Source: Escherichia coli
Lineage (GTDB): Bacteria > Pseudomonadota > Gammaproteobacteria > Enterobacterales > Enterobacteriaceae
Length of the DNA stretch: 64,000 bases
Reading direction: 5' to 3' (one strand)
Assembly: GCF_041248615.1 (NCBI RefSeq)
Contig: NZ_CP158426.1
How positions within the stretch are numbered: position 1 is the stretch's first letter; every line of letters begins with the position of its first letter. Below, in pieces: positions 5,462 through 58,151 of the stretch. The notes under the pieces are model-generated. The model was not told the origin of the DNA. It worked only from the letters and a program-made list of their open reading frames with translations, and did not search any database. The translations under genes and the position numbers were made by a program.

Positions 5462-5478
5462 AAGTTATCTCTCTTATC

Positions 5479-8970: not shown

Positions 8971-9412
8971 TGTTGACGCCTCATGCTGAATGATTTGTTA
9001 TGTTATAACGTTATGAATTATTTAAGGTCGAGGACTTGAATGTTATTTTTTGTTGCTTCGGGTTACTTAATATTAATCATTGGAAAATCACGAGGCTCCC
9101 AATGTATTGATAAATTGGATTTTTAATACCCATCACTACCTCTCATCGCTTGAATCATGATGACATCAGGCGTCCAGGTATGATCGTAATCTGCAAGAGC
9201 ACTGCTGATTAGCCTTTGTCCCATCTGTTTACTTTAAATCCTGAATTATCAAACAGGACAATGGAGTCCTGCTGGAAACATATTGATATAGATCCTTTCA
9301 AAAGATAATTATTCTCATTATTATTGGTTATGTTATAACGTAACAATTGAGGGTGTGCCGAGATTTAGAATGAGTCTATCCATTATTCGATGACTTATTC
9401 TGGGGAGGAATT

Positions 9413-10795: not shown

Positions 10796-10854
10796 GTCTT
10801 TCAATAAAATAATCATGTGATGCTATTAAATTACAATTCATTTAACTCATTGAG

Positions 10855-11943: not shown

Positions 11944-11986
11944 TAAAGTAATTCGGCGAATAGGTTTTTATTTTTAAAGGTTAGTT

Positions 11987-13739: not shown

Positions 13740-13934
13740 TAGGTAGCCAATATCGCAGAGAAAATAAGAATTGAGGAATTGTTTATTGCGAAACCGTGCG
13801 AGTAGATGGTAATTCTGGTAGGAATATCATTTACGATTGATCAATTTTCCCACGGACTATATGCGATAAAATAACTTTGTCGATGCATGAAATAGCAGCT
13901 TCATTTTGTTAAAAGTAATAATAAAGGTGTAATT

Positions 13935-14552
13935 ATGATTAAAAAATTCGTTGAAGAATATCTTAATCAGATCTACATAAAAAAATACTCAATTATTACT
14001 ATTAATTCTCTTGATGAAGCTTCAATTATATCTAATATGCCTCATTGTTGGGAGCGTGATTTTCTGAAAAGAGAGCTGCATCTTCGAAGTGATATTGTAT
14101 TGAAAGCTAGAAGTAAAATAACCCCCTTCAAATGGTCTTCTGTAAATGGTAATAATGAAGATCTTAAGGCTTTATCCAATAGGTATAATATTAGCAATGG
14201 GGTGACTTTTGTTATAAAAATAAAACATGATGTCGTGATCTTCACGATGTACTACAATGAGGATGATGAGGATTTCATAAGATACTACTCTAGAAAGAAA
14301 CATAAAATATTGTATGATGTTATGAGTCTTTTTGAATCCCATTATGAACAAACACCCAAACATGTATTCACTGTACGAGAAAAGGAAGTTATGAATTTGC
14401 TGAAGTTTGGAAAAACTTATATTGAAATAGCATTTATTCTTGGTGTAAGTGAAAGGACCGTCAGATTTCATATCAATAATATTCTTGATAAATTGAATGT
14501 GACATCAGTTCGTTATGCGATCTTTAAAGCAGCTTCCGAAGGTTTGATCTGA
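13935..14552 (+). CDS. LuxR-family transcriptional regulator
   Basis: 205-aa ORF; C-terminal LuxR HTH (REKEVMNLLKFGKTYIEIAFILGVSERTVRFHINNILDKLN); AT-rich N-terminal domain. Confidence 0.7.
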   Translation: MIKKFVEEYLNQIYIKKYSIITINSLDEASIISNMPHCWERDFLKRELHLRSDIVLKARSKITPFKWSSVNGNNEDLKALSNRYNISNGVTFVIKIKHDVVIFTMYYNEDDEDFIRYYSRKKHKILYDVMSLFESHYEQTPKHVFTVREKEVMNLLKFGKTYIEIAFILGVSERTVRFHINNILDKLNVTSVRYAIFKAASEGLI

Positions 14553-14883
14553 CAAGGTTTTCCTTGTCAGATCATCTATCAATGACGATAGAATTCTGAA
14601 AGGCGTAATCTCAAGCCATCGGTATCAAATCCATGCGCCCGAATGTGTTCTTCTGGGGTCCAAAATTGTCTGAGCTCCTTTGGTTTTGCACCAATGGACA
14701 AGATTCTGTGAGGTATATCGGACAATGCCTCACCTATAGCATGAATTGTCGTTCCTTCTAGGTATGGTTAACCTAGCCGGTTTATTACTACATGTCGTGG
14801 CAACTCCAGCGGAGTACATAATAGTCCATTCAGCATTGTTACTTTTTGTGAACTAGACTGGAAAAGAACTGGGTCAAATCACA

Positions 14884-16188
14884 TTAAATGAAGATACGTA
14901 GGCCGACCGCCGCCAGATGATCTGATACATTATATGACGCATCAGTGTTACCGCTTGCTTTCTCATAACCGTATTCAATATAGGTCACTGCGTTTTTCCC
15001 CAGCCAGTAATCGGTACCCAGCGTGGTGGACTGGAAGTGTTGACCGTCCATCGCATCACCGCCTTCGGTCCAGTCAAAGTTGGCATAGACGCTCCACTCA
15101 GGGGTAATTTTGAACTGTGAGGCATATTCCAGACCCAGAATCGTTTCTTGGTCGTTAGTCTGTTTGCTGGCGCCGCTGGTTGCTGCCTGAACGTCATCAA
15201 CTTTGTTGATATAGTAAGTCGCTTGCGCGCCGTTATACCAGGTGAAACTATCAAAGCTGGTTGTGTACTTAGCGTTCATCCCCATCGAATAGGTATTACC
15301 GTCATATGAAGGGCCGGTCACCGTTGTAACTGGAACAGTACCACCGTGCGGACCTATGGGCACATCCGTGGTTATGGTACCCTGATTGACAGAATAGTTG
15401 TTATAAGCTGCCGTACCGGAAAGTGAGAAACCATTATCGAAGCGATATTGTGCTGCTAACGCAGCGCCGCCGTGAACAGTCGCGGAACCATCGTGGTACG
15501 CATCATGCATATCCGGTCCGTTGCCGTAACCGCTGCCAAAACCAATTTTATCGACATCGTCATTCCCTTGGCCCATTACACCCACCGTGAAGGCCTTGGT
15601 GTTGTAATAATAAATAACAGCCGAGTTAATAATATCGGTCGACATACCAGTGGTATCATGTTTGGCTTTGCCACCGTATGCATAGGTGGTATCAATTCCC
15701 AGCCCCCAGTCGGTTGGGGAATATTGCTTACCGAAAGTCACCACCCCATATTCATCATTACCTATCCCCGCATACGCCTGACGGGTATAAACATCGTTAC
15801 CCTGATTATCAGTTGCGGAATCCAGACCGTGTATGCCAGTTTCATAATAACCTGCTGCGTAATAGCCTTTGTCATTAATATTGTGTCGTAGTGCGACACC
15901 CAGACGTGAGTCGTTGTTTTGTATATTATGTTCTACACTGTGCGCTGAATCGTTCTTTGCCATGAGACGTAAGGATCCCATAACTGAAATGGCTGTATCA
16001 TCATTTTGATAAATCATCTCCCCCTTGGTCTGTGTAGCAGTATATGCTGGAGCCGTATGTTCCCCGCTACTCACCTGTGCACAGGCAGGTGCGACTATTG
16101 CTGCAGTAATAAGCGGAGCAACAATAAATGGTTTAAGTCTTATATATTTTACGTGCATAGAAACCCCATGATCATTGTTTAAGTTCAT
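14884..16188 (-). CDS. Outer-membrane beta-barrel protein (porin-like)
   Basis: 434-aa ORF, likely start at internal MHVKYIRLKPF (16158); signal peptide, G/Y/T-rich strands, C-terminal ...GLRIFI. Confidence 0.5.
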   Translation of the reverse strand: MNLNNDHGVSMHVKYIRLKPFIVAPLITAAIVAPACAQVSSGEHTAPAYTATQTKGEMIYQNDDTAISVMGSLRLMAKNDSAHSVEHNIQNNDSRLGVALRHNINDKGYYAAGYYETGIHGLDSATDNQGNDVYTRQAYAGIGNDEYGVVTFGKQYSPTDWGLGIDTTYAYGGKAKHDTTGMSTDIINSAVIYYYNTKAFTVGVMGQGNDDVDKIGFGSGYGNGPDMHDAYHDGSATVHGGAALAAQYRFDNGFSLSGTAAYNNYSVNQGTITTDVPIGPHGGTVPVTTVTGPSYDGNTYSMGMNAKYTTSFDSFTWYNGAQATYYINKVDDVQAATSGASKQTNDQETILGLEYASQFKITPEWSVYANFDWTEGGDAMDGQHFQSTTLGTDYWLGKNAVTYIEYGYEKASGNTDASYNVSDHLAAVGLRIFI

Positions 16189-16370
16189 TTTTAGAGTGTT
16201 TTTTAAATATGGAGAGTCTATTAAAAGCTTTTGAATATAAAATAAAACTGTCAGTTCTGACAGGAGTGTTTTTTATTTTCAATTAAATTATTAAGCATTT
16301 TTTCGGAGATGTGGGTTTTTTACACGGTATTAGCGAAACGGTTTGCCATGTAGTTTGGACAAAGTAAAAA

Positions 16371-16400
16371 GCCGCATCAGTCTGCACTGATGCGGCTTTG
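16371..16400. terminator. Hairpin terminator downstream of island integrase
   Basis: Perfect 11-bp stem GCCGCATCAGT/ACTGATGCGGC with 4-nt loop, flanked by A-run and T-run. Confidence 0.55.
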
Positions 16401-16422
16401 ATTTGTCAGGGTGACTAAATCA

Positions 16423-17694
16423 CTAGCCAGCTTGAAGCGTCGTTTTTCCTCTCCCCAGTATGTAGGGCGGTACATAGGATTTGCGGCAAGTATCCAGATA
16501 ATCCGACCACCACTGCATCATTGCCTTTCTTGCTTCCAGATGCTCTGCTCTGTGAATATATGCCTGGCGTACGGAGTTACGTTCCTGGTGGCTCATTTGC
16601 CGTTCAACAGCATCCTGTGACCATATACTGGATTCCATAAGGGCACTGCATGCCATTGTCCTGAAACCGTGACCACAGATTTCCATTTTCGTATCCCAGC
16701 CCATCAGGCGTAGCGCCTTGTTCACCGTATTTTCACACATGGGTTTATACGGATTATGGTCCCCGGGGAACACGAGTGCATTATCTCCTGAGATATCCTT
16801 AATCTTTTTCAAGATCGCGATCGACTGTTGTGAGAGGGGTACGATATGAGGCCTGCGCATTTTGGCACCACGACCAGAGTAACGCACGCCTTCAATAGCT
16901 TCGCGCGTGGCGGGTATTGTCCAGACCTGGTTTCCGAAATCAATTTCATGCCAGCGGGCAAAACGCAATTCACTCGAGCGAATGAACAGATGCAGTGTTA
17001 GCAGGATGGCAAGGCGAGTGAGTTCACGGCACTGCTGAAAACTCTCAATGCTCTCAAGCAGTTCTGGAAGACGCTCCAGTGGTAGAGCGGGGTAGTGTCG
17101 TTTTACTGGTGGAGCCGTCACTCCGTCAAGGTTTGCTGCCGGATTAAAATCGATTAATCCATGATGCACGGCGTAGCGCATGATATTCCGGAGGTGCTGG
17201 CGTGTACGGGATGCAACTTCCAGGAGACCCTTTTCCTCAATTCCTTTTAATAAAGTGATGAAATGGCGGGGTTTCAGTTCTGAAACTGACATGGTGCCAA
17301 TGACTGGGAAGATATGATTATTCATGCTGGCGAGCAAACGGTCGGCGGTGTTCTCTGACCATTTTTTATTGCTCTTGTGCCATGCAAGTGCAACGTTTCT
17401 AAACACTTTCTTTGGCATGCGAGAACTGCGTTCGGCTGCTCGCTGCTCTGCTGGATTGATGTTCAGTACCAGCATTTTGCGAATACCTTCACGTTGACTA
17501 CGGGCGTCTGAGAGGGAGATGACTGGGTAGGCACCGAGTGCAATACGTGATTCTTTACCCTTAATACGGTACTTGAGATACCAGTGACGTGAACCGCCAG
17601 GTTTGACCAAGAGATACAGACCGTGGGAATCGGAAACTTTAAAGGGTTTATCAGATGGTTTGAGACTGCGGATTTTGGTGTCGGTAAGAGACAT
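16423..17694 (-). CDS. Tyrosine integrase, P4/CP4-57 type
   Basis: 423-aa ORF; N-terminus MSLTDTKIRSLKPSDKPFKVSDSHGLYLLVKPGGSRHWYLKYR is typical of P4-like integrases; adjacent to tRNA 3' end. Confidence 0.9.
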   Translation of the reverse strand: MSLTDTKIRSLKPSDKPFKVSDSHGLYLLVKPGGSRHWYLKYRIKGKESRIALGAYPVISLSDARSQREGIRKMLVLNINPAEQRAAERSSRMPKKVFRNVALAWHKSNKKWSENTADRLLASMNNHIFPVIGTMSVSELKPRHFITLLKGIEEKGLLEVASRTRQHLRNIMRYAVHHGLIDFNPAANLDGVTAPPVKRHYPALPLERLPELLESIESFQQCRELTRLAILLTLHLFIRSSELRFARWHEIDFGNQVWTIPATREAIEGVRYSGRGAKMRRPHIVPLSQQSIAILKKIKDISGDNALVFPGDHNPYKPMCENTVNKALRLMGWDTKMEICGHGFRTMACSALMESSIWSQDAVERQMSHQERNSVRQAYIHRAEHLEARKAMMQWWSDYLDTCRKSYVPPYILGRGKTTLQAG

Positions 17695-17855
17695 ATGGGG
17701 TCACTCCATAATAGAACGAACCGGACCCCAGATTTGACCACCAATTTTTCCCGATGCGGAGGATAAAATCAAAATGCATCAGGAGAAGTTTTCACGCTAA
17801 GCTGTTGTATTAAAACCATAGAGGCATTAATGAATGCTGCACGAAAACAAGAATT

Positions 17856-17931
17856 TGGCTCCTCTGACTGGACTCGAACCAGTGACATACGGATTAACAG
17901 TCCGCCGTTCTACCGACTGAACTACAGAGGA
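17856..17931 (-). tRNA. tRNA-Asn (anticodon GTT)
   Basis: Reverse complement reads TCCTCTGTAGTTCAGTCGGTAGAACGGCGGACTGTTAATCCG...GGTTCGAGTCCAGTCAGAGGAGCCA; 76 nt cloverleaf. Confidence 0.9.
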
Positions 17932-19012: not shown

Positions 19013-19057
19013 AAATTCAATCACTTACACATCATTAAGTCAGTGACAAAAATCACA

Positions 19058-19090
19058 CTTGGAATTACTTGGAATATTTTCTTGGAATAT
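19058..19090. repeat. Three direct CTTGGAAT repeats in the attL arm (putative Int/Xis arm sites)
   Basis: CTTGGAATTACTTGGAATATTTTCTTGGAATATTTTC overlapping the int 3' end. Confidence 0.4.
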
Positions 19091-20090
19091 TTTCAGGTAA
19101 CGGGACATCAAGTGTTGGTGAAACTTTAACCTTCCTGTCATAGATTAGCACTTGCCCTTCGGTTTTGTGACCAGAGAAAAGTTGCTTATCCCGGCTGCTT
19201 CCTTCATAGTCTGAAATTCCTTTCGCCTTCAGATCATGAAAGGTGAAGTCGGTTAAAATACCTGAAATTTTTCCAGCACGATTTCTTGCATCTACCCACA
19301 TTTCGTTAAAGCCTTTGTACATATATCGGTTGCCGTATTGATTGCTGATCACATAGGCAGATTTTGGTAACTGTTTTGCTTTTTCGATCGCTGCCTGTAA
19401 TCGTGGACTCCATGCTTTTATCTGTTTTTTTCCGGTTTTCCCTTGCTGGATGAATATCCCGTCGTTTCCAATCTGTTCCCATTTCAGCGATAACACATCG
19501 GAAACCCTCGCTGCACACAGATAGGCAATTTCCATTGCGATAAAAACAGGAAGAGGTGCAACGCTTAATACTGCCTGGTATTCTTTGTCGGTTACATATC
19601 GTTCGCGGTTTTTGGCCTTGAATTTACTTACACCTGCACATGGGTTAGCCTTCACGTACCCTCGCTCATACCCCCAACTGTAAACACGGGACATACTGCT
19701 TTTTTCATGGTTGGCTTGCGTTTTACTCTGCTCCCCTCTTTTGTCCATGTATCGACGGATGTGTTCTGGTTTTATGGAATCCGCTGGTACCTTACCGAAT
19801 ACGGCAAGCAACTTTTTTTGATGTTGCAGATAATCTTTTTGTGTTCTTGGACTAAGGTCACTGTAATAGGCGCTGGCGAGGAATTTTTCCCACAAGCGAC
19901 CGAATGTCATTGCACGATCGCGATTATTTACAGTTTCCTCATACTTTTTCCATAAAGCAGCTAAACCATCCTTGATGGCGGTTAGTGTGACAGATTCTCT
20001 GGATGTTGGTTTCCATACATAACTATATTTATTTGGGTATACATTTGGAGGTAATTTTTCGTGTTCAGGATTTTTCCTTCGTCTTCCCAT
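19065..20090 (-). CDS. Phage tyrosine integrase
   Basis: 341-aa ORF adjacent to attL; C-terminal catalytic region with conserved R...H..R...Y spacing. Confidence 0.9.
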   Translation of the reverse strand: MGRRRKNPEHEKLPPNVYPNKYSYVWKPTSRESVTLTAIKDGLAALWKKYEETVNNRDRAMTFGRLWEKFLASAYYSDLSPRTQKDYLQHQKKLLAVFGKVPADSIKPEHIRRYMDKRGEQSKTQANHEKSSMSRVYSWGYERGYVKANPCAGVSKFKAKNRERYVTDKEYQAVLSVAPLPVFIAMEIAYLCAARVSDVLSLKWEQIGNDGIFIQQGKTGKKQIKAWSPRLQAAIEKAKQLPKSAYVISNQYGNRYMYKGFNEMWVDARNRAGKISGILTDFTFHDLKAKGISDYEGSSRDKQLFSGHKTEGQVLIYDRKVKVSPTLDVPLPENIPRKYSK

Positions 20091-20351: not shown

Positions 20352-22793
20352 TTAAAAATCAGCCTGACTCGGGATCAGTTTTTGCCAGATAGCTGAAACG
20401 TATTTTGCCTGGTAACGAGCGTCATCAAGTGCATTATGGCGCTCACCTTCGAATGGAATAGCCGTTCTGGCATCGAAGTCTATGGCTTTCCCCAGCTCAA
20501 CGATTGTGCGTACATCGCGATCGTTGTAGTAACGCCACGGGCAGGGGATCCCCTGCCGTTCGTATGAACGGCGCAAAATCGTGTTGTCGAAGTTGGCTCC
20601 ATTTCCCCAAACCTGAACAAAAAATTCACCGGAGTTTTCGTCGATAAATTCCCGCAATTGTAACAGTGCATCATCTAACGGGATTTCATCGGTCATAATG
20701 GCAGATTGCGCTTCGCGTGATTGCTTAAGCCACCATTTAATGGTGTCCCGATCAATGACTCCGCCAGCAGTTTCCAGATCGATAGTCTTACTAAATTCCG
20801 GTCCCATATCTCCGGTTTGCGGATCGAAAAATATTGCACCTATTGAGATGATCGGGGCATCAGGATTTTTTCCCATGGTTTCAAGGTCGATCATTAGATG
20901 GTCACACGTCCTGCTGGTGGATGTGATTTCGTGATGACCGTTCACCTTAATTGGGTGATCTGCCGTCTCGCCAGTTTTATTATCGCTGGCGTGATGCTGA
21001 TTGCCGCCAGGGTTCTCCTTGTGTGGATGTTCAGCGCCTTCCATTTCCTCCGGATCATTTTCCTGAACTTCAACCTGATTCTCTTCATCGAATGTTTCCT
21101 GGTATGTTGCGTCGCCCATCACCGCGCCACAATCAGGGCAGTTGCCGCCACCGCTCTGACCGCAGGCGGTGCAGACTTTTTCCGGTTCCTGTTGCGCTAC
21201 TGGTTCGGATTGTTTCGTTTCTGGCTCGTTTTGTAACGCATTTGGGCTGTTTTGTTCCGCTTTTTGGTCGTTCCGTTCCGATTCATGCTGGTTCTGGTTC
21301 ACAGAATCGCGAGTCTGGATCCCCTTGACCCATTTCGGATCATTAGGGTCGCTAATCCCCTCAACAAATTCACCACGCGATACAGCAAGTAACTTATCGG
21401 CGTCAGGCTGGCTGATATTGGCTGCCTGCATAATTTTGTTTACTTCGTCAGCGGTGACTTTTACTTGGTTAGCGGAACTCACCTGCGACTGAGCATCCAG
21501 CGACTGCGCGTTCTGGCCATGTTCAGTTGTATCCGGTTCCATTGTTTCAGTTGTTGCCTGTTCACCTGCCATTGCGTCAGATGGTTGTGGTTTTTCTTCT
21601 TCTGTTTCACGCTCAGTAACCACCTCGCGGTTAATTTCTTCCAGGATATCTTTTTCCGGCGTATGCCGGGCAGCTGTGAGAGTTTCCTTGCTGGGGTTCT
21701 CGTGATCAGTTTCCGTCAAATAGGCGTTGATATACCCCTGAAGGCGTCCCGGGTAGTGATAAAATTCAGGGTGTGCGCTTCGGATAAGTGCAAAAATAGC
21801 GGCGCGGGAATAGTCCAGAATACCCGGGGTTGCACGAAGTGCTGCGGACCATTCTTTGAACGGACTTTCTTTGTTCAGGACTACTTCTTTTGCGCGACGA
21901 TAAACGCTGCCCGGAATTTCATAAATATTAAAATCCATCGGAAGTGTGGCTGCTGCAATCTCCACATCCAGTGTGTCGAGGGTGTGTACTAAATTCGGAT
22001 TGCGATCGGTTTTGTTCCCACCGCCAGCATTAGCACCGGAAGCCGTGCGGGTGATGCGTGAAACACGATTTCCTTTCATCCACTCTTTTGTCAGCAGACC
22101 CCGATCAGTGTAGTCAGCGTCCAGGTATGCTTCGAAAAAAGCAGTTATTAGTCCCAGGTCTGAATTACCAGGATTAGGGAAAACTTTGTCAGTGTCACGA
22201 ACCAGTTTGTGGAGGTCGCGAATCTCCAGCGAGTCGAGCAGACTGGTTTTATGCGAAATAGCCAGGGCAGTAACAGCCGGTAGTTCTTCAGCCCGTGCAA
22301 TGTGTAATGCCTGGAGTTCGTCGCGTGAAACGTGCGTTACTGGTTTTTCGCTGCCGTGTTGAGCAAGCCAACGAATGGGCAGTTCCTGACCGGAGACAGG
22401 CAGAAGCATGCTCTCCTCAATCTCAGTCATGTCTTCGCCGTTGATGTTGGTATTGTCAGTGCTGGCTGGTTTGTCCTGAACAGAGGGGGAAGGGCCGATA
22501 AATGTCATTGTGATGCCATCTTTCCCGCCTTTTTCATAGCGGTTGCAGAATTCAGTATCAAACACGCCTTCTGGCGGAAGGTCGTCAACAACGGGCAAAT
22601 TGACGCGGACGGGTTTTTTAAAGTCGTCTTCATCATAATCGTTGTCATCCATTGCGGTAATGCAGCGGGAGATTGCAACAGATAATTTTTTTGCTGTAGT
22701 CCAGTAAAAACCACCTTTAATTCCCAGGCGTTTTCTTACTTTGTCATTTTTTGCTTCGCAATATAGTGCAAATTCTTCTTTATCAGTGCTCAT
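20352..22793 (-). CDS. Large early protein with C-terminal DnaQ-like 3'-5' exonuclease domain (intact YdfE-like)
   Basis: 813-aa ORF; C-terminal MIDLETMG ... WGNGANFD ... HNALDDA (DEDDh motifs); central [16 protein letters not shown] zinc ribbon; acidic low-complexity linker. Confidence 0.7.
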
Positions 22794-27701: not shown

Positions 27702-29036
27702 TTATGATACCGATAAAAACTTTGTTGCAATTTCTGCTGCCGTTTTCTCCATGCTGGGATATACAGTGCTTTCGGATATATTAAGCTGCGCCAGCTCTTC
27801 CAGAATTTTATTTTTGTTCGCTATCTCCACTCTGTTAAGAGGAAACTCAGCATCTGTTTCCGGTAAAATGGGATCAAGTCCGAACAGAAGAAAAGCTCCT
27901 GCCTGAGATTGTATGCGTTCATTATTTATTTTAGCCTTAAGGAAAACAACTTTCCTTAAGTCATCAGGAATTATTCTGTTTCTGAAATATGATTTTTCAT
28001 TCTGTATAAGGTCTGCAAGTTTATCCGTGAGTTCAGATAACTCCATATTACCTTTTCTGGAATCAGAGGAGGACAATTTTTCCAACTCTTCGTAAGATAA
28101 AAGTGATAAGTTTGCTATACAGCTCACTGTATCTGAGTCGAAATATTTAATTTTCTTTCTATTTGTTGAAAACGAAATCACCTGTCCGTTTTCATCGGGG
28201 TTCGAACAGCAAGCAAAATATAATGCTATCAGTGGGTTAGATGTAATGTCTAAGAGTCTTGTAGGCAAGCCATAATGCTGCATGCGGACAAGTTTATCAA
28301 TCGTAAATTTATCCTCCTTAAATTCATTTGGTCTTGCGCTGAGTATTTCACGTACTAAATCAGATTCTGAAGCAAGATGCCTGTACGTCCCGTTTTGATT
28401 TTTTCTGTAAAGAGAGGGGACAAGCTCATATGAGCTTTTAGAGTGTCCACGATAAAAGGTAATGAGACCATCACGAAAGTTTTTCTTTATGAAATTAAGA
28501 TAATCTATAATATTCTCGACTACTGGGTATGTTTGTTTTTTTAATTTGATTGTACCTTTCAGTTGGCTATTTTGTTTGTTTAAACCAAGTGATTCCAGAA
28601 CAATATTTAAATCCTTATTTTTTACTGCCCAATGTGTACGACTTAACCCGAAAGATCCTAGCCCTAGGGTTTCTTTATATAATGTCGTTTGGGGATTCGT
28701 TATTTCTCCAAAATTATGATTAATCTTGAAAGAAAATAAAATATCGCCACCATCTTTACGTAAGTTTCTTATTTCCCCAAGTCTGATCCTGATGTACTTG
28801 TTTGTATCATATTCATCATCTTTTGTATAAGTTTCGGTCATGAACAATACTGGTAGCTTGGCGAGTTCTCTTAAGGTATCGGGTCTTATTGGTGTTAATT
28901 TACTGTAAATATCGCTTGGGGTGCCTTCCAGCATGCGGGACATCGAGAATCTTTCCTCGCCTTCTTTAAGCCCAGGGTCCATACACGGCCAGCGGTCAAA
29001 AACGTCCGGTTCTCCGGCCATGATTAAGCTAAACAT
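27702..29036 (-). CDS. FRG-domain protein (candidate anti-phage/abortive-infection moron)
   Basis: 444-aa ORF on the opposite strand to neighbours, in ~1.9 kb AT-rich block; motifs FYRGHS, LVPSLYR, QHYGLPTRLLDITSNPLIALYFA fit the FRG domain as I recall it; palindromic hairpin at its 3' end. Confidence 0.6.
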   Translation of the reverse strand: MFSLIMAGEPDVFDRWPCMDPGLKEGEERFSMSRMLEGTPSDIYSKLTPIRPDTLRELAKLPVLFMTETYTKDDEYDTNKYIRIRLGEIRNLRKDGGDILFSFKINHNFGEITNPQTTLYKETLGLGSFGLSRTHWAVKNKDLNIVLESLGLNKQNSQLKGTIKLKKQTYPVVENIIDYLNFIKKNFRDGLITFYRGHSKSSYELVPSLYRKNQNGTYRHLASESDLVREILSARPNEFKEDKFTIDKLVRMQHYGLPTRLLDITSNPLIALYFACCSNPDENGQVISFSTNRKKIKYFDSDTVSCIANLSLLSYEELEKLSSSDSRKGNMELSELTDKLADLIQNEKSYFRNRIIPDDLRKVVFLKAKINNERIQSQAGAFLLFGLDPILPETDAEFPLNRVEIANKNKILEELAQLNISESTVYPSMEKTAAEIATKFLSVS

Positions 29037-33295: not shown

Positions 33296-33401
33296 GTGCC
33301 ACTTATCTCGGATAGACATGGTGAATGCGCTAGTGGAGGAGATAAGGGTGATTTTTGAATGCTTGCAACATTGATTTCGTAACGTTATTATCCTGCGCCC
33401 G

Positions 33402-33477
33402 GCCCTTTAGCTCAGTGGTGAGAGCGAGCGACTCATAATCGCCAGGTCGCTGGTTCAAATCCAGCAAGGGCCACCAG
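33402..33477 (+). tRNA. tRNA with CAT anticodon (Met or Ile2, ileZ-like)
   Basis: GGCCCTTTAGCTCAGTGGTGAGAGC...CTCATAATCGC...GGTTCAAATCCAGCAAGGGCCACCA. Confidence 0.8.
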
Positions 33478-33478
33478 C

Positions 33479-33555
33479 CGCCACTAGCTCATCAGGAAAG
33501 AGCGTCAACCCTTTAAGTTGAGTGTGCGAGGTTCGAGTCCCCGGTGGCGGTCCAG
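33479..33555 (+). tRNA. tRNA-like gene, anticodon ambiguous (loop CCTTTAA, nominal TTT)
   Basis: 7-bp acceptor stem CCGCCAC/GTGGCGG, D and T arms present, CCA end; atypical C at position 33; T-stem has one A-C mismatch. Confidence 0.5.
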
Positions 33556-33556
33556 T

Positions 33557-33633
<77 letters not shown>

Positions 33634-33635
33634 AT

Positions 33636-33711
<76 letters not shown>

Positions 33712-34001: not shown

Positions 34002-34217
34002 ATGAAATCCATGGACAAAATTTCAACGGGCATTGCCTACGGCACCTCCGCAGGCAGTGCTGGCTACTGGTTTTTACAGTGGCTTGATCAGGTCAGTCCG
34101 TCACAGTGGGCTGCGATTGGTGTACTGGGGAGTCTGGTTCTGGGCTTCCTGACTTATCTGACAAATCTGTACTTCAAAATCAGAGAAGACAAGCGTAAGG
34201 CTGCACGGGGAGAGTAA
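34002..34217 (+). CDS. Holin, phage 21 S-like pinholin (dual start MKSM/MDKI)
   Basis: 71-aa [32 protein letters not shown]...; two TM segments; GAGG RBS. Confidence 0.8.
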
Positions 34218-34221
34218 TTCA

Positions 34222-34572
34222 ATGACTCAAAACTATGAACTGATTGTGAAAGGGATCCGCAATTTTGAGAATAAAGTTACGGTAACTTTAGCGTTACGGG
34301 ACAAAAAACGCTTTGACGGCGAAATTTTTGACCTGGACATCTCGCTGGACCGTGTTGAAGGTGCCGCGCTGGAGTTTTATGAGGCAGCAGCCAGAAGGAG
34401 CATCAGACAGGTCTTCCTGGATGTTGCTGCCGGGTTATGTGAAGGGGATGAGCAGTCGCCGGAAAAGCGCCCCGTAATTTTAGAGGCGCAGAATGTGTGG
34501 ATAACCTACAAAGGAAAGCTACCAGGAAGAATTACTGGTTCTCTGAAGACTCCTCCGGAATCACAACCTTAA
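34222..34572 (+). CDS. YdfR-like protein between holin and endolysin
   Basis: 116-aa ORF in the slot YdfR occupies in Qin as I recall; no catalytic motif. Confidence 0.45.
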   Translation: MTQNYELIVKGIRNFENKVTVTLALRDKKRFDGEIFDLDISLDRVEGAALEFYEAAARRSIRQVFLDVAAGLCEGDEQSPEKRPVILEAQNVWITYKGKLPGRITGSLKTPPESQP

Positions 34573-34635: not shown

Positions 34636-35169
34636 ATGAACGCAATAATCAGATACGGCCTGTCGGCTGCCGTTCTGGCACTGATTGCCGTCGGTGCGCC
34701 CGCGCCTGATATTCTCGACCAGTTTCTGGATGAAAAAGAAGGTAACCACACAACGGCATACCGCGATGGTTCCGGCATCTGGACCATCTGTCGGGGTGCC
34801 ACGATGGTGGATGGAAAACCCGTTTTTCCCGGTATGAAACTGTCGAAGGAAAAATGCGACCAGGTCAACGCCATTGAGCGTGATAAGGCGCTGGCATGGG
34901 TGGAGCGCAATATTAAAGTACCACTGACCGAACCACAAAAAGCGGGTATCGCGTCATTTTGTCCCTATAACATTGGCCCCGGTAAGTGTTTTCCATCGAC
35001 GTTTTATAAGCGGCTGAATGCTGGTGATCGTAAGGGCGCATGCGAGGCGATTCGCTGGTGGATAAAAGATGGTGGGCGCGATTGCCGCATACGTTCAAAT
35101 AACTGCTATGGACAGGTTATTCGTCGTGACCAGGAAAGCGCATTAGCCTGTTGGGGAATAGATCAGTGA
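34636..35169 (+). CDS. SAR endolysin (T4-type lysozyme fold)
   Basis: 177-aa ORF; N-terminal SAR-like [18 protein letters not shown]; EG..T catalytic region ([22 protein letters not shown]). Confidence 0.85.
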
Positions 35170-35633
35170 GCAGAGTCGCCGCGATTATTTATGCTCTGGT
35201 TATCTGCATCATCGTCTGCCTGTCGTGGGCGGTCAATCATTACCGTGATAACGCCATCACCTACAAAGAACAGCGTGATAAAAAAGTCAGTGAGCTGAAG
35301 CAGCTGACCGCCACCATCGCTGACATGCAGCAGCGTCAGCGTGATGTTGCTGCGCTCGATGCAAAGTACTCGAGAGAATTAGCCAATGCGAAAGCTGAAA
35401 ATGAAACTCTGCGCGCTGATGTTGCCGCTGGTCGTAAGCGCCTGCGGGTCAATGCCAGTTGCTCCGCAGCCGTGCGTGAAGCCACCGGACCCACCAGCGT
35501 GGATAATGCAACCAGCCCCAGACTGGCAGACACCGCTGAACGGGATTATTTCACCCTCAGAGAACGGTTGATGACGATGCAGAAGCAACTGGAAGGGGCA
35601 CAGCTATACATTCGTGAGCAATGTCTCAGATAA
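35151..35633 (+). CDS. Rz i-spanin (start may be GTG at 35166)
   Basis: N-terminal TM, coiled-coil body; overlaps endolysin stop. Confidence 0.75.
35386..35571 (+). CDS. Rz1 o-spanin lipoprotein, embedded in Rz in the +1 frame
   Basis: [24 protein letters not shown]... lipobox VVSAC, Pro-rich mature part. Confidence 0.65.
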
Positions 35634-35788
35634 AAACCGGCCAAGGATAATCCGCTAAAGATTCGCCGGTGGCGAAAGAGAGCCAAGGTGTCAACCTACG
35701 CTATTACTTATGATAATGCAACAGACGAAGCGGGACATATTGGCGCATAACAAATCAGTGCAGGCTAACTGCAGGAAGAACTTAGGGC

Positions 35789-36055
35789 GTGAACGTAGAA
35801 AACCTAAGTAACGCACATTACATCTATAACGAGATGAAAGAGCTACAGCGACAGAAAGGTATACTGGAAAGTGGTGCAGGGCTTGGTGTGACAATCCAGT
35901 CTGCCTATCAATATAGTGCTTTTCTTGAGGCCATACGCCCGCATGCAGTTGCTGAACTTAACAGCCGTATTGAGGAAAAGAAATCCGCGCTGGTTAATTT
36001 GGGTGCTTCCTTCTCTATATACGAGCATAATAAGGCGGGTTGGAAACCCGCCTAA
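35789..36055 (+). CDS. Hypothetical protein (88 aa)
   Basis: ORF between lysis cassette and packaging genes; no motif recognised. Confidence 0.35.
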   Translation: MNVENLSNAHYIYNEMKELQRQKGILESGAGLGVTIQSAYQYSAFLEAIRPHAVAELNSRIEEKKSALVNLGASFSIYEHNKAGWKPA

Positions 36056-36060
36056 AGCAC

Positions 36061-36600
36061 TTAGAAACTGCGTGGAGCTGTGGAAAGAATGGATGTCAGT
36101 TCTTCCTTCGATAAATCCCAGCTTCGATTTACAGCGTCAATTTTCTTAAACTCATCAAGCATTGCGTTATAGAGATGTTCTGTACGTGAATGAGTATTGG
36201 CAATGGGCTGTTTCTGTTCGGGGAAGCGATCAATTTTCTGATATGCCTCAATGATACTGAAGTAATCGCATTCATTATGACCGTCGAAACCTGGGAGCTG
36301 AATTTCCCCATCATGTATTTTTAGATGATGGTCACGGACTAATTCTTTTTGCTCGTCATCACTAAGTTTCCTGAAAGCATTGGAAAGTCCGCGGTACATA
36401 TTCAAGACAGCAGTAACAAAATCACGATCTTCTTTACTTGGTTCATCAACATCCAAATGTGAATATTCGGCCTTCATAACCCAATCATTACCAGATGACA
36501 CAGCATATTTTACAAGCTGTGGATCAATATCAGTTTCGATACCTAGGTGGATGGCAATGTCACATAACAAAATGGTATTGATTTTATCCTTAATATCCAT
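36061..36600 (-). CDS. YfbU-family (UPF0304)-like protein, opposite-strand moron
   Basis: 179-aa ORF; resemblance to E. coli YfbU in the C-terminal half is by recollection only. Confidence 0.45.
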   Translation of the reverse strand: MDIKDKINTILLCDIAIHLGIETDIDPQLVKYAVSSGNDWVMKAEYSHLDVDEPSKEDRDFVTAVLNMYRGLSNAFRKLSDDEQKELVRDHHLKIHDGEIQLPGFDGHNECDYFSIIEAYQKIDRFPEQKQPIANTHSRTEHLYNAMLDEFKKIDAVNRSWDLSKEELTSILSTAPRSF

Positions 36601-36738
36601 GAGTTAACCCTCTGAAGTAAAAAGTAATATCTACACCCGTTAGCTCATGAAGTCTATTGATCTGGCTCATATCAGCGGCAAATCTATTTCATGGAGATAC
36701 TCAATGCAGGTCACTTTTGATTTATATAAGGGCGAAAC

Positions 36739-37089
36739 ATGCCAGCACTAATCCCACGAGCCTGCCGTAAACGTGGATGTGCAGGTACAACCACAGACAG
36801 TTCTGGTTACTGCGATAAACATCGTGGCGAAGGATGGGTACAGCATCAGCGCGGACTGAGTCGCCACCAGCGTGGCTATGGCTCGAAATGGGATGCCATA
36901 CGTGCGCGCATACTGAAGCGTGATAATCATCTGTGTCAGAACTGCCTGCGCAATGGGAGAGCCGTTGAAGCCAGAACTGTGGACCACATCATTCCGAAAG
37001 CTCATGGTGGCACGGATGCAGACAGTAACCTGCAGAGTCTGTGCTGGCCCTGTCATAAAGCAAAAACAGCGCGCGAACGCATCAATTGA
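36739..37089 (+). CDS. HNH endonuclease (packaging-associated)
   Basis: CxxC...HIIPKAHGGTDADSNLQSLCWPCHKAK motif; directly upstream of terminase. Confidence 0.8.
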   Translation: MPALIPRACRKRGCAGTTTDSSGYCDKHRGEGWVQHQRGLSRHQRGYGSKWDAIRARILKRDNHLCQNCLRNGRAVEARTVDHIIPKAHGGTDADSNLQSLCWPCHKAKTARERIN

Positions 37090-37237: not shown

Positions 37238-37720
37238 ATGTCAGGACCTCCGAAAACCCCGCCACGCCTGCATTTGATTCGAGGCAACCCCTCAAAGCGC
37301 CCCGTTAAAGACCACAAAAAAACCGCTAAAAAGGATGAAAAAGGTCTTCCTAAAATTCCGCAGCATTTAGGGGCTCAGGGGAAGTACTGGTTCAGGCGAA
37401 TGGCGGAAGAGCTGAATGCGGAAGGGATCATTTCTCAGCTTGATGCGCGTGCGCTCGAGTTGCTGGTGGAAGCCTACACCGAATATCGGCATCACTGCGA
37501 AACACTCGATGTTGAGGGGTATACCTACCGCACGGAAACGCAGAGCGGTGATGTACTGATTAAGGCGCACCCCGCGGCGGCAATGAAAGCGGATGCCTGG
37601 AAGCGGATCCGGGCAATGCTTGCAGAGTTTGGTATGTCACCGGCAAGCCGGGCTAAAGTAAATATCGCCGGACCGGATGATGTTGATCCGCTGGCGGAGC
37701 TTTTAAAAGCGAGAGACTGA
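37238..37720 (+). CDS. Terminase small subunit
   Basis: 160-aa ORF immediately upstream of and coupled to terminase large subunit. Confidence 0.75.
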   Translation: MSGPPKTPPRLHLIRGNPSKRPVKDHKKTAKKDEKGLPKIPQHLGAQGKYWFRRMAEELNAEGIISQLDARALELLVEAYTEYRHHCETLDVEGYTYRTETQSGDVLIKAHPAAAMKADAWKRIRAMLAEFGMSPASRAKVNIAGPDDVDPLAELLKARD

Positions 37721-39477
37721 TGGCAAAAGTGGCTGACGGGATCCGCTACGCCGAACGTGTTGTTGCAGGAGAAATTGTTGCTGGCGAATTTGTCCGCCTG
37801 GCCTGCCAGCGTTTTCTTGATGATCTGAAGTACGGCGAAGAGCGGGGGATTTATTTCAGTGAACCCCGTGCGCAGCACATCCTGAATTTCTACAAATTTG
37901 TGCCTCATGTAAAAGGGGCGCTGGCAGGCCAGCCCATTGAGTTGATGGACTGGCATGTATTTATCCTCATTAATATTTTTGGTTTTGTCATTCCGCTGGT
38001 CAATGAAGAGACCGGGGAAGTTGTCATGCGCAGCGATGGCAGCGGACGTCCGGTGATGGTGCGCCGGTTCCGGACGGCGTACAACGAAGTCGCCCGTAAA
38101 AACGCAAAATCAACTCTGTCATCGGGTATCGGCCTGTATATGACGGGGGCAGATGGTGAAGGCGGAGCTGAGGTGTATTCAGCCGCAACCACGCGTGACC
38201 AGGCCAGAATCGTGTTTGAAGACGCCAAAAATATGGTCAGAAAAGCCCGGTCGACACTCGGGCGGTTGTTTGATTTCAACAAGCTGGCGATTTACCAGGA
38301 GCAGAGCGCATCAAAATTTGAACCGCTTTCTTCGGATGCAAACAACCTGGATGGTCTGAACATCCACTGCGCCATTATTGATGAGCTGCATGCACATAAA
38401 ACTCGTGACGTGTGGGACGTTCTGGAAACGGCAACCGGTGCCCGTCTGCAGTCCCTTTTATTTGGTATCACCACGGCAGGGTTTAACAAGGAAGGGATTT
38501 GTTACGAGCAGCGTGATTACGCCATCAAGGTATTGCGTGGCTATAACAGCGACGTGGAGGGCGCGGTAAAAGACGACTCCTACTTTGCGATTATTTACAC
38601 CCTCGATGAGGGAGATGATCCGTTTGATGAAACGGTCTGGCAGAAAGCGAATCCCGGCCTGGGCATCTGTAAACGCTGGGATGATCTGCGTCGCCTGGCG
38701 AAAAAAGCGAAAGAACAGGTCTCTGCGCGGGTGAATTTTTTTACCAAACACATGAATGTGTGGGTAACAGCAGAGTCTGCCTGGATGGACATGATTAAGT
38801 GGGATAAGTGCGAATACATTGCCCCACGACATGAGCTGAAAACGTATCCCATGTGGGTCGGCGTTGACCTTGCTCATAAGATTGATATCTGTGCGGCGGC
38901 AAAACTCTGGCGAACGGATAACGGGCATGTTCATGCCGATTTTAAATTCTGGCTTCCGGAAGGACGGCTGGAACGATGCTCGCGGCAGCAGGCAGAACTT
39001 TACCGGAAGTGGGCGGAGATGGATAAGCTGATTCTGACGGATGGTGATGTTATCGATCATGCTCAGATAAAAAGTGACTTACTGGAATGGATTGGTGGTG
39101 AAAACCTCAGGGAACTGGGATTTGACCCGTGGAGCGCGATGCAGTTCAGCCTGGCACTGGCTGAAGAAGGGATACCGCTGGTGGAGGTTCCGCAGACGGT
39201 TCGCAATCTGTCAGAGGCCATGAAGGAAACGGAATCACTGGTCTATGCCGGGCGTTTCCATCACAGCAATCATCCGGTCATGAACTGGATGATGTCTAAC
39301 GTTACGGTAAAACCGGACAAAAACGACAATATCTTCCCGAATAAATCCACGCTGGAAGCCAAAATCGACGGCCCTGTTGCGATGTTTACAGCAATGAGCC
39401 GGATGCTGGTCAATGGTGGTGAACCGGAGCTGGATCTGTCTGAACATCTGGTCAGCGTGGGCATCCGCTCGCTTTAA
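37720..39477 (+). CDS. Terminase large subunit
   Basis: 585-aa ORF with ATPase and nuclease-domain motifs (IIDELHA; [10 protein letters not shown]). Confidence 0.9.
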
Positions 39478-55766: not shown

Positions 55767-58151
55767 GTGGATATGGCAGCAGTAAAAATCTCAGGTGTGC
55801 TGAAAGATGGTGCGGGAAAACCAATACAGAACTGCACTATTCAACTGAAGGCAAAGCGTAACAGCACCACGGTACTGGTGAACACGGTGGCTTCTGAAAA
55901 TCCGGATGAAGCCGGACGTTACAGCATGGATGTTGAGTATGGCCAGTACAGCGTCACCCTGCTGGTTGAAGGTTTTCCGCCTTCACATGCCGGGACCATT
56001 ACCGTCTATGAAGGTTCCAGACCAGGTACGCTGAATGATTTTCTCGGTGCCATGACGGAAGATGATGTCATGCCGGAGGCATTGCGTCGTTTTGAGGCAA
56101 TGGTGGAAGAAGCGGCACGCAACGCCGAAGCCGCCTCTCAGAGCGCAGCGGCGGCAAAGAAATCCGAAACTGCAGCGGCATCATCGAAGAACGCGGCGAA
56201 AACCTCAGAAACGAATGCAGCTAACAGCGCACAGGCGGCAGCGACCTCACAGACTGCATCGGCAAACTCCGCGACAGCAGCCAAAAAATCAGAAACCAAC
56301 GCGAAAAACAGCGAGACAGCCGCAAAGACGAGCGAAACCAACGCAAAGTCCAGCCAGACGGCAGCGAAGACCAGCGAAACGAATGCCAAAGCCAGTGAAA
56401 CTGCGGCAAAAAACAGCCAGGTTGCAGCAGCCCAAAGCGAGAGCGCGGCAGCCGGTTCTGCGACTTCAGCAGCCGGATCAGCAACTGCTGCGGCTAACAG
56501 CCAGAAAGCTGCGAAGACGAGTGAAACTAACGCAAAGTCCAGCCAGACGGCAGCGAAGACCAGCGAAACGAATGCCAAAGCCAGTGAAACTGCGGCGAAA
56601 AACAGTCAGGATGCTGCAGCCCAAAGCGAGAGTGCCGCAGCTGGTTCTGCAAGTGCGGCGGCTTCTTCTGCCACTGCATCAGCCAACAGTCAAAAAGCTG
56701 CAAAAACCAGTGAAACCAACGCAAAGGCGAGCGAGACTGCGGCGGCTAACTCGGCGAAAGCATCCGCTGCAAGCCAGACGGCTGCAAAAGCAAGTGAAGA
56801 CGCAGCCAGAGAGTATGCAAGCCAGGCTGCGGAGCCGTATAAACAAGTTTTGCAGCCGCTTCCCGATGTGTGGATACCGTTTAACGATTCACTGGATATG
56901 ATTACGGGCTTTTCGCCATCATATAAAAAGATTGTTATTGGCGACGACGAAATAACGATGCCTGGTGACAAGGTTGTTAAGTTTAAACGCGCATCGAAAG
57001 CAACCTATATTAATAAATCTGGTGTACTGACAGAGGCTGCCATTGACGAGCCGCGATTTGAACGTGATGGCCTGCTTATTGAGGGGCAAAGAACTAATCT
57101 TCTGCTTAATTCAACAAATCCATCTAAATGGAATAAGTCAGGCAATCTGGAACTCACAGAAATATCCACGGATTCTTTTAATTTTACTTATGGGAGATTT
57201 ACTGTAAAAGATACTCTTATTGATCAGACAAGTGCGATTAATATCGTAACGGTTTCTGGCAGTAAAGGATTTGATGTCACAGGTGATGAAAAATATGTGA
57301 CCATTTCATGCCGTGTCAGAAGTGATGTTGAAAATATAAGGTGTCGTTTAAGATTTGAACATCATGATGGTTCTACTTACACTTTTTTGGGAGATGCTTA
57401 CCTCAATTTATCAACACTTGTAATTGATAAGACTGGTGGTGCAGCAAATCGTATTATTGCAAAGGCTGTAAAAGATGAGGCTACTGGTTGGATTTTCTAT
57501 CAGGCTACAATTAATGCACTAGATACAGAGAGCATGATTGGTGCGATGGTTCAATATGCTCCAGTAAAAGGTTCAGGCACAGCATCTGGAGACTATCTGG
57601 ATATCGCAACTCCACAAGTGGAAGGTGGATCAAGTGCTTCGTCATTTATTGTAACTGATATAATTGCAAGCACTCGCGCAAGCGATATGGTGACAGTCCC
57701 AATCAAGAATAACCTTTATAATCTTCCTTTTACAGTTCTTTGTGAGGTACATAAGAACTGGTATAAAACGCCAAATGCAGCACCGCGTGTTTTTGATACC
57801 GGCGGTCATCAAACCGGAGCGGCTATTATTCTTGGCTTCGGTCGTTCAACAGATTACGACGGATTTCCTTATTGCGATATAGGTTTGGCTAACAGACGGG
57901 TAAACGAAAACGCATCGCTTGAAAAAATGGTTATGGGGATGCGTGTAAAGTCAGATCAGTCTACGTGCTCAGTAAGTAACGGGCGTATATCCAGCGAAAA
58001 GAAAGCCACATGGTCCTATATTCAGAACACCGCAATTATCCGTATTGGAGGCCAGACTACAGCCGGGTTGCGTCATTTATTTGGTCATGTCAGGAATTTC
58101 AGAATATGGCACAAGGCATTGACTGATGCTCAGGTGGGGGAGTCAATCTAA
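55767..58151 (+). CDS. stf: Side tail fibre (Stf-like) with Ala-rich repeat region
   Basis: N-terminus MAAVKISGVLKDGAGKPIQNCTIQLKAKRNSTTVLVNTV close to lambda Stf; variable C-terminal half. Confidence 0.8.
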   Translation: MDMAAVKISGVLKDGAGKPIQNCTIQLKAKRNSTTVLVNTVASENPDEAGRYSMDVEYGQYSVTLLVEGFPPSHAGTITVYEGSRPGTLNDFLGAMTEDDVMPEALRRFEAMVEEAARNAEAASQSAAAAKKSETAAASSKNAAKTSETNAANSAQAAATSQTASANSATAAKKSETNAKNSETAAKTSETNAKSSQTAAKTSETNAKASETAAKNSQVAAAQSESAAAGSATSAAGSATAAANSQKAAKTSETNAKSSQTAAKTSETNAKASETAAKNSQDAAAQSESAAAGSASAAASSATASANSQKAAKTSETNAKASETAAANSAKASAASQTAAKASEDAAREYASQAAEPYKQVLQPLPDVWIPFNDSLDMITGFSPSYKKIVIGDDEITMPGDKVVKFKRASKATYINKSGVLTEAAIDEPRFERDGLLIEGQRTNLLLNSTNPSKWNKSGNLELTEISTDSFNFTYGRFTVKDTLIDQTSAINIVTVSGSKGFDVTGDEKYVTISCRVRSDVENIRCRLRFEHHDGSTYTFLGDAYLNLSTLVIDKTGGAANRIIAKAVKDEATGWIFYQATINALDTESMIGAMVQYAPVKGSGTASGDYLDIATPQVEGGSSASSFIVTDIIASTRASDMVTVPIKNNLYNLPFTVLCEVHKNWYKTPNAAPRVFDTGGHQTGAAIILGFGRSTDYDGFPYCDIGLANRRVNENASLEKMVMGMRVKSDQSTCSVSNGRISSEKKATWSYIQNTAIIRIGGQTTAGLRHLFGHVRNFRIWHKALTDAQVGESI
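56322..56700 (+). repeat. Tandem duplication (~2 x 189 bp) inside stf
   Basis: Near-identical units starting at 56322 and 56511, encoding KTSETNAKSSQTAAKTSETNAKASETAAKNSQ.AAAQSESAAAGSA. Confidence 0.6.

Follow-up and report, generated by a model that had tools for sequence, protein, structure and literature searches.

A YfbU-family gene antisense between the lysis and packaging genes of an Escherichia coli lambdoid prophage: a very probable moron with a possible role in phage defence

Results

Gene content between the lysis and packaging modules

The window analysed here, a stretch of 64,000 nucleotides of Escherichia coli DNA, is 100% identical to positions 2115672-2179671 of the chromosome of E. 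coli NRZ14408 (NZ_LT599825.1). According to the RefSeq annotation, its counterpart in that record is a lambdoid prophage lying beside tRNA-Ser/mtfA, the integrase of which is annotated as frameshifted. An earlier note, made from the sequence alone, had placed an 88-aa ORF on the plus strand and a 179-aa ORF on the minus strand between Rz/Rz1 and the HNH-terminase block. We confirmed both the coordinates and the flanking genes, and the features of the region are as follows.

34002-34217: P21-type holin
34222-34572: YdfR/DUF1327
34636-35169: lysozyme
35151-35633, plus strand: Rz (Pfam Phage_lysis, 1.6e-49), left conserved flank of the cargo slot
35386-35571: Rz1, nested within Rz
35710-35811, plus strand: very basic small ORF of 33 aa overlapping the start of the 88-aa gene; status as a gene uncertain
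35789-36055, plus strand: 88-aa gene, GTG start, on the late strand
36033-36053, minus strand: GC-rich hairpin AGGCGGGTT-GGA-AACCCGCCT, probable intrinsic terminator of the YfbU-like transcript
36061-36600, minus strand: 179-aa YfbU-family gene, ATG start, member of a mobile subfamily of about 180 aa and very probably moron cargo
36601-36738, minus strand: 5' region of the YfbU-like gene, holding the next four features
36608-36613, minus strand: Shine-Dalgarno sequence AGAGGG
36624-36629, minus strand: weak -10-like element TATTAC (sigma-70-like)
36646-36651, minus strand: weak -35-like element TTCATG, with a spacer of 16 to TATTAC
36650-36657, minus strand: invariant ATAGACTT block
36739-37089, plus strand: HNH endonuclease (Pfam HNH, 1.9e-16), first gene of the packaging block and right conserved flank of the slot
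37238-37720: P27-type small terminase
37720-39477: large terminase

In the identical record, the 88-aa CDS is named 'hypothetical protein' and the 179-aa CDS already bears the label 'YfbU family protein'. The 33-aa ORF had no Pfam match; Citrobacter phage Chris1 and Klebsiella phage ST101-KPC2phi6.3 have annotated small ORFs at a like position. Among 5426 complete E. coli genomes, 306 carry the 1.1-kb segment, ST131 clinical isolates included, and it is also present in two phage records. A literature search on the phage records vB_EcoS-689R5 and 611R1 gave no relevant paper.

The 179-aa protein has a full-length YfbU fold and belongs to a distinct subfamily

Neither of the two ORFs is a chance ORF. 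The 88-aa protein matched phrog_5415 with an E-value of 2e-38 and the 179-aa protein matched phrog_6084 with an E-value of 5.6e-82. For the latter, the YfbU/UPF0304 family that the earlier note had put forward was borne out by an HMM check, which gave 44.3 bits against Pfam YfbU (PF03887 / UPF0304) for a cut-off of 25 (E-value 2.5e-11, residues 47-172). A profile built from 113 members of the subfamily also found YfbU in the PDB with an E-value of 1e-16. The AlphaFold2 model computed with the same 113-sequence alignment reached a pLDDT of 94.7, and the two-domain helical YfbU fold was found to span the whole protein. Superimposition with the structures of the E. coli chromosomal YfbU (b2294; PDB 1WPB and 4LR3), with which the 179-aa protein shares both Pfam family and overall fold, gave 176-177 aligned columns and TM-scores of 0.66-0.74. 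Beyond YfbU, no solved structure resembled this fold, and structure is therefore no guide to the activity of the protein.

In spite of this similar architecture, the two proteins are clearly different. BLASTP aligned K-12 YfbU with the 179-aa protein at 21% identity only (E-value 0.022), and their N-terminal domains could not be aligned by sequence. The NCBIfam equivalog describing chromosomal YfbU (NF003936) scored 33.7 bits, below its cut-off of 90. In the 113-sequence alignment, the conserved positions of the subfamily are W40, G104-F105-D106-G107-N108-N109-E110, N135-S/T136-H137, Y144 and M147; the motifs GFDG(N/H)NE and N(S/T)H are replaced in chromosomal YfbU by GFDAATE and NAQ, the latter with a glutamine for H137. 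The conserved D106/N108-N109/E110/H137 cluster is missing from chromosomal YfbU. The genomic settings also differ, since K-12 yfbU stands in the housekeeping context hxpA-yfbU-yfbV next to ackA-pta, whereas the 179-aa gene lies in a prophage between Rz and HNH. Low identity, failure at the equivalog cut-off and prophage context together rule out that the 179-aa gene is an orthologue of chromosomal yfbU. An exhaustive search retrieved 495 representative clusters of homologues at an E-value of 1e-3 or below, which are mostly 175-190 aa long and aligned over their full length. Altogether, these data define the 179-aa protein as a full-length YfbU-fold protein from a distinct subfamily carried by mobile elements.

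The Rz-terminase junction is a variable cargo slot

Related prophages were retrieved by a search with the Rz-to-TerS segment, and their near-identical flanks enclosed different contents. The slot is empty in NZ_CP182203, where 42 bp separate Rz from HNH; elsewhere it is occupied by an opposite-strand iss, by an opposite-strand GNAT acetyltransferase together with a 66-aa ORF, or by an 89-aa ORF. On the right side, all four comparison loci lose homology exactly at the start codon of HNH (36739). On the left side, the boundary with prophages carrying other cargo fell at the end of Rz (35603/35632) or at 35773. The Rz-terminase junction is a recombination hot spot.

The slot between Rz and the packaging block is the one that holds bor on the lambda map. 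Both bor and iss encode an outer-membrane lipoprotein conferring serum resistance. Lambda bor and the iss of E. coli prophages lie just downstream of Rz in the same opposite-strand orientation as the YfbU-like gene, and each of them is likewise a separate cassette, found in some related prophages and missing from others. Their sequence, fold and likely role are nevertheless unrelated to those of YfbU.

The base composition of the cargo sets it apart from its surroundings, with a GC content of 0.391 for the YfbU-like gene and 0.384 for its 5' region, compared with 0.52-0.54 in the flanks (0.53 for Rz, 0.54 for HNH and TerS) and 0.50 for the prophage. By the Juhala/Hendrix definition of a moron, as summarised in PMC3594210, the 179-aa gene shows most of the expected traits: absence from related phages at the same position, deviant base composition and a terminator hairpin of its own. 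The earlier note had called both genes accessory and had described opposite-strand genes at module junctions as typical morons. The moron reading holds for the 179-aa gene, with its presence or absence among relatives, its low GC and its own hairpin. The 88-aa gene, on the late strand, is accessory but lacks the features of an independent transcription unit. We conclude that the 179-aa gene is, with high confidence, a self-contained prophage moron in the Rz-HNH slot, and as such a well-supported and fairly ordinary example of prophage cargo.

One could also imagine that a gene so placed serves the phage life cycle, either as a regulator of packaging or lysis or as an accessory factor travelling with the HNH-terminase block. 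The position beside the terminase genes is indeed highly conserved, and in one locus (L007) the block of homology with the window takes in HNH as well as the YfbU-like gene and the intergenic region. However, the YfbU-like gene is altogether missing from some related prophages in which Rz, HNH and terminase are near-identical, and is thus dispensable. Moreover, the gene is found with at least four types of terminase, including the lambda-type GpA/Nu1 without HNH, and relatives occur on plasmids without phage genes nearby. Being antisense to the late transcript, it would also have low expression at the very time of packaging and lysis. A function in the phage life cycle thus appears quite unlikely to us.

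The antisense position is conserved across divergent prophages

A scan of IMG/VR identified 162 viral contigs with relatives of the YfbU-like gene. The best 80 of these 162 contigs were analysed, and 79 had a recognisable YfbU-like gene, corresponding to 29, 17 and 6 protein clusters at 90%, 70% and 50% identity, respectively. Within the best 80 of 162, the lysis genes were antisense to the YfbU-like gene in 62 of 62 loci and the terminase/HNH genes in 55 of 56, and the YfbU-like gene lay between lysis and terminase in each of the 45 loci having both markers. The single exception (L106) has the YfbU-like gene oriented as HNH and terminase. These loci form two deep clades, the second one being only 27-39% identical to the 179-aa protein. 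The sample was drawn with an enterobacterial alignment (A4) and is skewed towards enterobacterial lambdoid prophages, because the search patterns and the marker proteins both came from such prophages. Homologues at 82%, 62% and 53% identity were likewise antisense between lysis and terminase in prophages with differing lysis cassettes and terminase types. The antisense slot of the YfbU-like gene is thus conserved across divergent prophages.

Putative expression signals of the YfbU-like gene

Comparison of eight divergent loci showed that approximately 95 nt proximal to the ATG of the YfbU-like gene are kept and that the distal part is variable. The weak -35-like and -10-like elements came from this kind of comparative alignment alone, and a sigma-70 consensus scan called no minus-strand promoter for the gene. 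We propose that TTCATG/TATTAC could be a putative weak promoter.

At the other end, the hairpin at 36033-36053 has a GC-rich stem of 9 bp located 8 nt past the stop codon and is followed on the minus strand by UUAUUAU. Its fold energy is -17.6 kcal/mol, with a z-score of -3.1. Of 12 homologous loci examined, 10 have a comparable GC-rich hairpin with a different stem sequence past the stop codon, and in two of the homologous loci (L011 and L075) a run of six T directly follows the hairpin. Judging from these sequence features, the hairpin is probably the intrinsic terminator of the YfbU-like transcript.

The 88-aa gene is an independent neighbour

The match of the 88-aa protein (p88) to phrog_5415 joins residues 1-76 to positions 1-76 of a profile of 76. 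Its homologues fall into 276 clusters, almost all of 76 aa, from prophages of Citrobacter, Salmonella, Klebsiella and E. coli; weaker ones (32-47% identity) belong to virulent phages, where they accompany other small genes in the vicinity of replication genes. The homologues of Citrobacter phage Chris1 and Klebsiella phage ST101-KPC2phi6.3 stand after the lysis genes on the late strand with no YfbU-like gene nearby, and the DNA homology of the window with Chris1 stops at 36015. Residues 77-88 are a lineage-specific extension, the last 12 codons running into the terminator hairpin of the YfbU-like gene. This 12-residue C-terminal extension comes from the recombination joint.

AlphaFold2 modelled the 88-aa protein as a helical hairpin (pLDDT 81.5), with a tail that stays below 50 and is predicted to be disordered. 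The core contains a conserved loop, GxGLGVTIQSxYQD. No Pfam family was matched, and a fold search with the model returned only generic helical hairpins, all with E-values above 0.8; the matches to T4 UvsY and to the ING4 dimerisation domain were accordingly dismissed as not meaningful. We identified neither a promoter nor a terminator belonging to the 88-aa gene. As a low-confidence guess, its product may be a small factor that binds another protein.

One would wonder whether the two ORFs constitute a two-gene module, such as a toxin-antitoxin pair or a defence gene with its self-immunity partner. They converge at a distance of 5 bp, the 88-aa ORF runs into the terminator of the other gene, and a p88-family gene stands beside the YfbU-like gene in 36 of 36 viral loci whose YfbU-like protein shares 88% identity or more with the query. 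This association, however, does not extend further. An HMM search among the best 80 of 162 contigs detected a p88 homologue in none of the 44 more divergent viral loci, and homologues of the YfbU-like gene at 53-82% identity have unrelated neighbours. Conversely, the p88 family is common without a YfbU-like gene in prophages of Citrobacter, Salmonella and Klebsiella and in virulent phages, and in several loci p88 is truncated beside an intact YfbU-like gene. Besides, convergent genes cannot be co-transcribed. Since co-occurrence is restricted to close relatives, we rejected the two-gene module as very improbable and consider the two genes as independent neighbours.

Both genes have been maintained

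Could the two ORFs be decaying remnants devoid of function? The frameshifted integrase would agree with this idea, as would the occasional truncated or IS-disrupted copies, illustrated by one IMG/VR viral contig in which the YfbU-like gene is split by an insertion encoding a transposase, and the junction-derived, predicted disordered extension of the 88-aa protein. Yet the 179-codon frame is unbroken in homologues from 99% down to about 50% identity, with saturated synonymous change, and the dN/dS ratio of the gene is 0.13-0.15, as estimated from two pairs whose synonymous sites are unsaturated. The 179-aa gene is thus under purifying selection. Its Shine-Dalgarno sequence, upstream block and probable terminator are conserved as well, and the 76-aa family of the 88-aa protein is kept down to 32% identity in virulent phages. 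With such evidence of maintenance, we regard decay as extremely improbable.

Relatives of the YfbU-like gene on other mobile elements

YfbU-family genes are also common on plasmids, for example in Kosakonia (49% identity), Raoultella, Bacillus and Xanthomonas, on small plasmids of Acinetobacter and on about 270 plasmids of Enterococcus. In a P2/HP1-like Yersinia phage, seen at two different chromosomal sites, the cargo ends with a relative of 31% identity. Some relatives have defence genes as neighbours. A 244-aa relative sits between two restriction-modification systems, Mrr with a methyltransferase and Eco29kI with a methyltransferase, and in one Enterobacteriaceae prophage the same slot holds a YfbU-like gene together with a Ser/Thr kinase (PD-T4-6 models, E-value 4e-30) and a PP2C phosphatase. 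One distant relative was found in an ordinary chromosomal neighbourhood. Neighbours vary among the homologues of the 179-aa gene, and no conserved partner gene emerged from their comparison. Neither the 179-aa nor the 88-aa protein was matched by PADLOC with its 2023 database, a null result that carries little weight because this database predates Kamadhenu.

Discussion

What could be the benefit for a lambdoid prophage to carry such a gene? The earlier note had considered the function of the YfbU family to be unknown. This view is now partly superseded, since a member of the fold is a phage-defence protein, Kamadhenu (PMC11381338, PMC12184496), and chromosomal YfbU has been linked to MazF-dependent death (PMC2646832). 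Kamadhenu (pUCCL624_130) is a YfbU-fold protein of 180 aa encoded by a Lactococcus plasmid, which acts as a single-gene abortive-infection defence (PMC11381338, PMC12184496). It makes cells strongly resistant to Skunavirus and Ceduovirus phages, and the phenotype is one of abortive infection (PMC11381338). In all escape mutants the change lies at G22 of a Sak-like single-strand annealing protein (PMC12184496), and phage DNA replication, transcription and translation are unaffected (PMC13064643).

The 179-aa protein resembles Kamadhenu by its length of about 180 aa, its YfbU fold and its organisation as a single gene without a required partner. On the other hand, the carrier of Kamadhenu is a plasmid of a Gram-positive bacterium and that of the 179-aa gene a lambdoid prophage of a Gram-negative one, and the fixed antisense position in a late operon is peculiar to the YfbU-like gene, with no counterpart on the Kamadhenu plasmid. 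The proposed link between the two is drawn from family, fold, size, single-gene layout and carriage by mobile elements. No Lactococcus plasmid was among the matches listed for plasmid tblastn searches with the query, the subfamily consensus, E. coli YfbU and an Enterococcus homologue, and nothing named Lactococcus was among the 120 matches listed for the profile search. A full-text literature search for 'YfbU' brought up no work on a homologue from an E. coli prophage.

By analogy with Kamadhenu, we propose that the 179-aa gene could be expressed in the lysogen from its own weak promoter and act alone as an abortive-infection defence against superinfecting phages, a reading to which we give slightly less than an even chance. 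The gene would be transcribed in the lysogen from the putative promoter described above, and its product alone would abort the infection, as Kamadhenu does. The recombination functions of the invading phage, namely its single-strand annealing protein, may set its sensitivity. Because the gene is head-on to the Q-antiterminated late operon, its expression should fall in the lytic phase that follows prophage induction, and such silencing at induction would spare the burst of the carrier prophage itself. The orientation bias observed among viral loci is consistent with selection against a sense-oriented abortive-infection gene, which would reach high expression late in the lytic cycle of its own prophage.

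HepS, from the Salmonella prophage Gifsy-1, offers a working model for this proposal. It is a single protein, constitutively produced and inactive until a phage cue, that then causes abortive infection, and its carrier prophage also has to avoid self-targeting (PMC13043305). In the case of HepS, this is achieved by a non-triggering variant of the tail tip and not by gene orientation (PMC13043305).

Several observations speak against a defence role. The YfbU family has many members, among them a housekeeping chromosomal gene, and the best-known cargo of the slot, bor/iss, is a serum-resistance lipoprotein. The frameshifted integrase, the copy split by a transposase gene and the distant relative in an ordinary chromosomal context were also counted against this explanation.

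Another hypothesis is that the 179-aa gene is a lysogenic-conversion gene acting on host physiology, either on stress survival or death after DNA damage, or on fitness or virulence. Supporting this idea, chromosomal YfbU was reported to be selectively made after induction of MazF, and cells deleted for yfbU were spared the MazF-dependent death that follows DNA damage (PMC2646832). Furthermore, iss occupies the same slot in other E. coli prophages, and the cassette is carried by the 306 complete genomes mentioned above, with ST131 clinical isolates among them. However, the 21% identity with chromosomal YfbU and the differences at polar positions conserved in the subfamily (GFDGxNE for GFDAATE, H137 for Q) speak against it, and yfbU is already present in every E. 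coli. In addition, the sole mobile member of the fold to have been tested is anti-phage, and the strict antisense place in the late operon fits a product harmful during lytic growth. An action on host physiology is thus a minority possibility in our view.

Going beyond the single gene, one could assume that the YfbU-like proteins of about 180 aa make up a widespread and so far unrecognised class of abortive-infection systems, each consisting of one protein, in Enterobacteriaceae prophages. Their near-invariant head-on placement would then provide self-immunity, Q-antiterminated late transcription shutting the defence down on induction of the carrier, the conserved D106/N108-N109/E110/H137 cluster would form an effector or ligand site, and sensitivity would depend on the annealase of the infecting phage. 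This extended version is speculative and, taken as a whole, we consider it unlikely.

The present work adds to the RefSeq label the anatomy of the hot spot, the antisense slot kept across divergent prophages, the separation of the subfamily from chromosomal YfbU, and the hypothesis of a defence gene with self-silencing. Should the gene not be involved in defence, the Rz-terminase junction would still have been cleanly described as a recombination hot spot. The antisense position suggests a simple and testable idea of how an abortive-infection gene could be carried harmlessly through the prophage's own lytic cycle. If the 179-aa protein does act in defence as Kamadhenu does, a single-gene anti-phage system not yet listed and missed by PADLOC 2023 would be present in about 5% of complete E. 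coli genomes, ST131 clinical lineages among them, which would be relevant to host range in phage therapy and to catalogues of defence systems. It would also offer a tractable E. coli/lambdoid genetic model to address the biochemical activity of the YfbU fold.

Borders and integrity of the prophage

The DNA that precedes the prophage in the window contains the following features.

1-4040, VirB-type type IV secretion genes
16423-17694, a second tyrosine integrase
17856-17931, tRNA-Asn

Altogether, the genes in 1-17931 are evidence of an integrative element or island directly adjoining the prophage. Two genes of the prophage itself were also noted.

19040-20090, minus strand, prophage integrase, frameshifted according to the RefSeq annotation
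20352-22793, minus strand, 813-aa "exonuclease" with an Exonuc_VIII (RecE-like) region and a C-terminal Rv2179c-like 3'-5' exonuclease domain

Since its integrase is annotated as frameshifted, the prophage carrying the YfbU-like gene may be defective. Despite this frameshift, near-identical lysis-to-packaging DNA is contained in two deposited phage records. Concerning the exonuclease, the annotated genes of the prophage do not include an annealase of the RecT, Red-beta, Erf or Sak type. An exonuclease without an annotated annealase is of interest here, because it is in an annealase that escape mutations fall for Kamadhenu, the YfbU-fold abortive-infection protein from a Lactococcus plasmid (PMC12184496).

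Late region and the lysis-terminase slot

Three further features were noted in the late region and tail genes.

33401-33710, plus strand, four clustered tRNA genes (Ile, Lys, Thr, Gly), with the Q antiterminator on one side and the holin on the other
35710-35811, plus strand, putative, very basic 33-aa ORF overlapping the start of the 88-aa gene
56307-56744, plus strand, tandem duplication of about 189 bp within the tail-fibre gene, the copies being 84% identical

Citrobacter phage Chris1 and Klebsiella phage ST101-KPC2phi6.3 have annotated small ORFs in a position like that of the 33-aa ORF; the 33-aa sequence itself gave no match with family profiles. The slot between the lysis and terminase genes holds additional or alternative cargo in two comparison prophages.

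L009/L010/L065, about 6990-8488, another enterobacterial prophage: Ser/Thr kinase and PP2C phosphatase beside a YfbU-like gene
L003, 2162-3092, E. coli CREC-36: opposite-strand GNAT acetyltransferase and a 66-aa late-strand ORF

The kinase matched the defence models PD-T4-6, mad6 and Stk2 (E-values from 4e-30 to 8e-34), and the same prophage has a HicAB pair upstream of its holin gene. No PADLOC match was obtained for the CREC-36 cargo.

YfbU-family relatives

In a copy 99% identical to the YfbU-like gene (L074 4543-6279, IMG/VR UViG_2711768076_000009), a 1.2-kb insertion interrupts the gene after about codon 87; it encodes a 326-aa transposase, which we take to be IS5/InsH-like. Another relative occurs in L025.

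L025, 5423-10961, region encoding, among others, a YfbU-family protein of 244 aa that is extended at its N-terminus

Its gene is flanked by Mrr_cat and a methyltransferase on one side and by an Eco29kI-type restriction enzyme and a methyltransferase on the other, which is a defence-island context. In addition, a 172-aa YfbU-family gene is present on about 270 Enterococcus plasmids, directly followed by a 170-aa ORF without assigned function and surrounded by transposases (for example L108 3001-4038, E. faecium Aus0085 plasmid p3). These two genes could constitute a two-gene variant.

A second candidate defence gene

Finally, the prophage encodes a FRG-domain protein.

27702-29036, minus strand, 444-aa FRG-domain protein between the replication genes and hokD

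It matched the PADLOC candidate defence family PDC-S15 (E-value 7e-99). In addition to the YfbU-like gene, it is the second candidate defence moron of this prophage.
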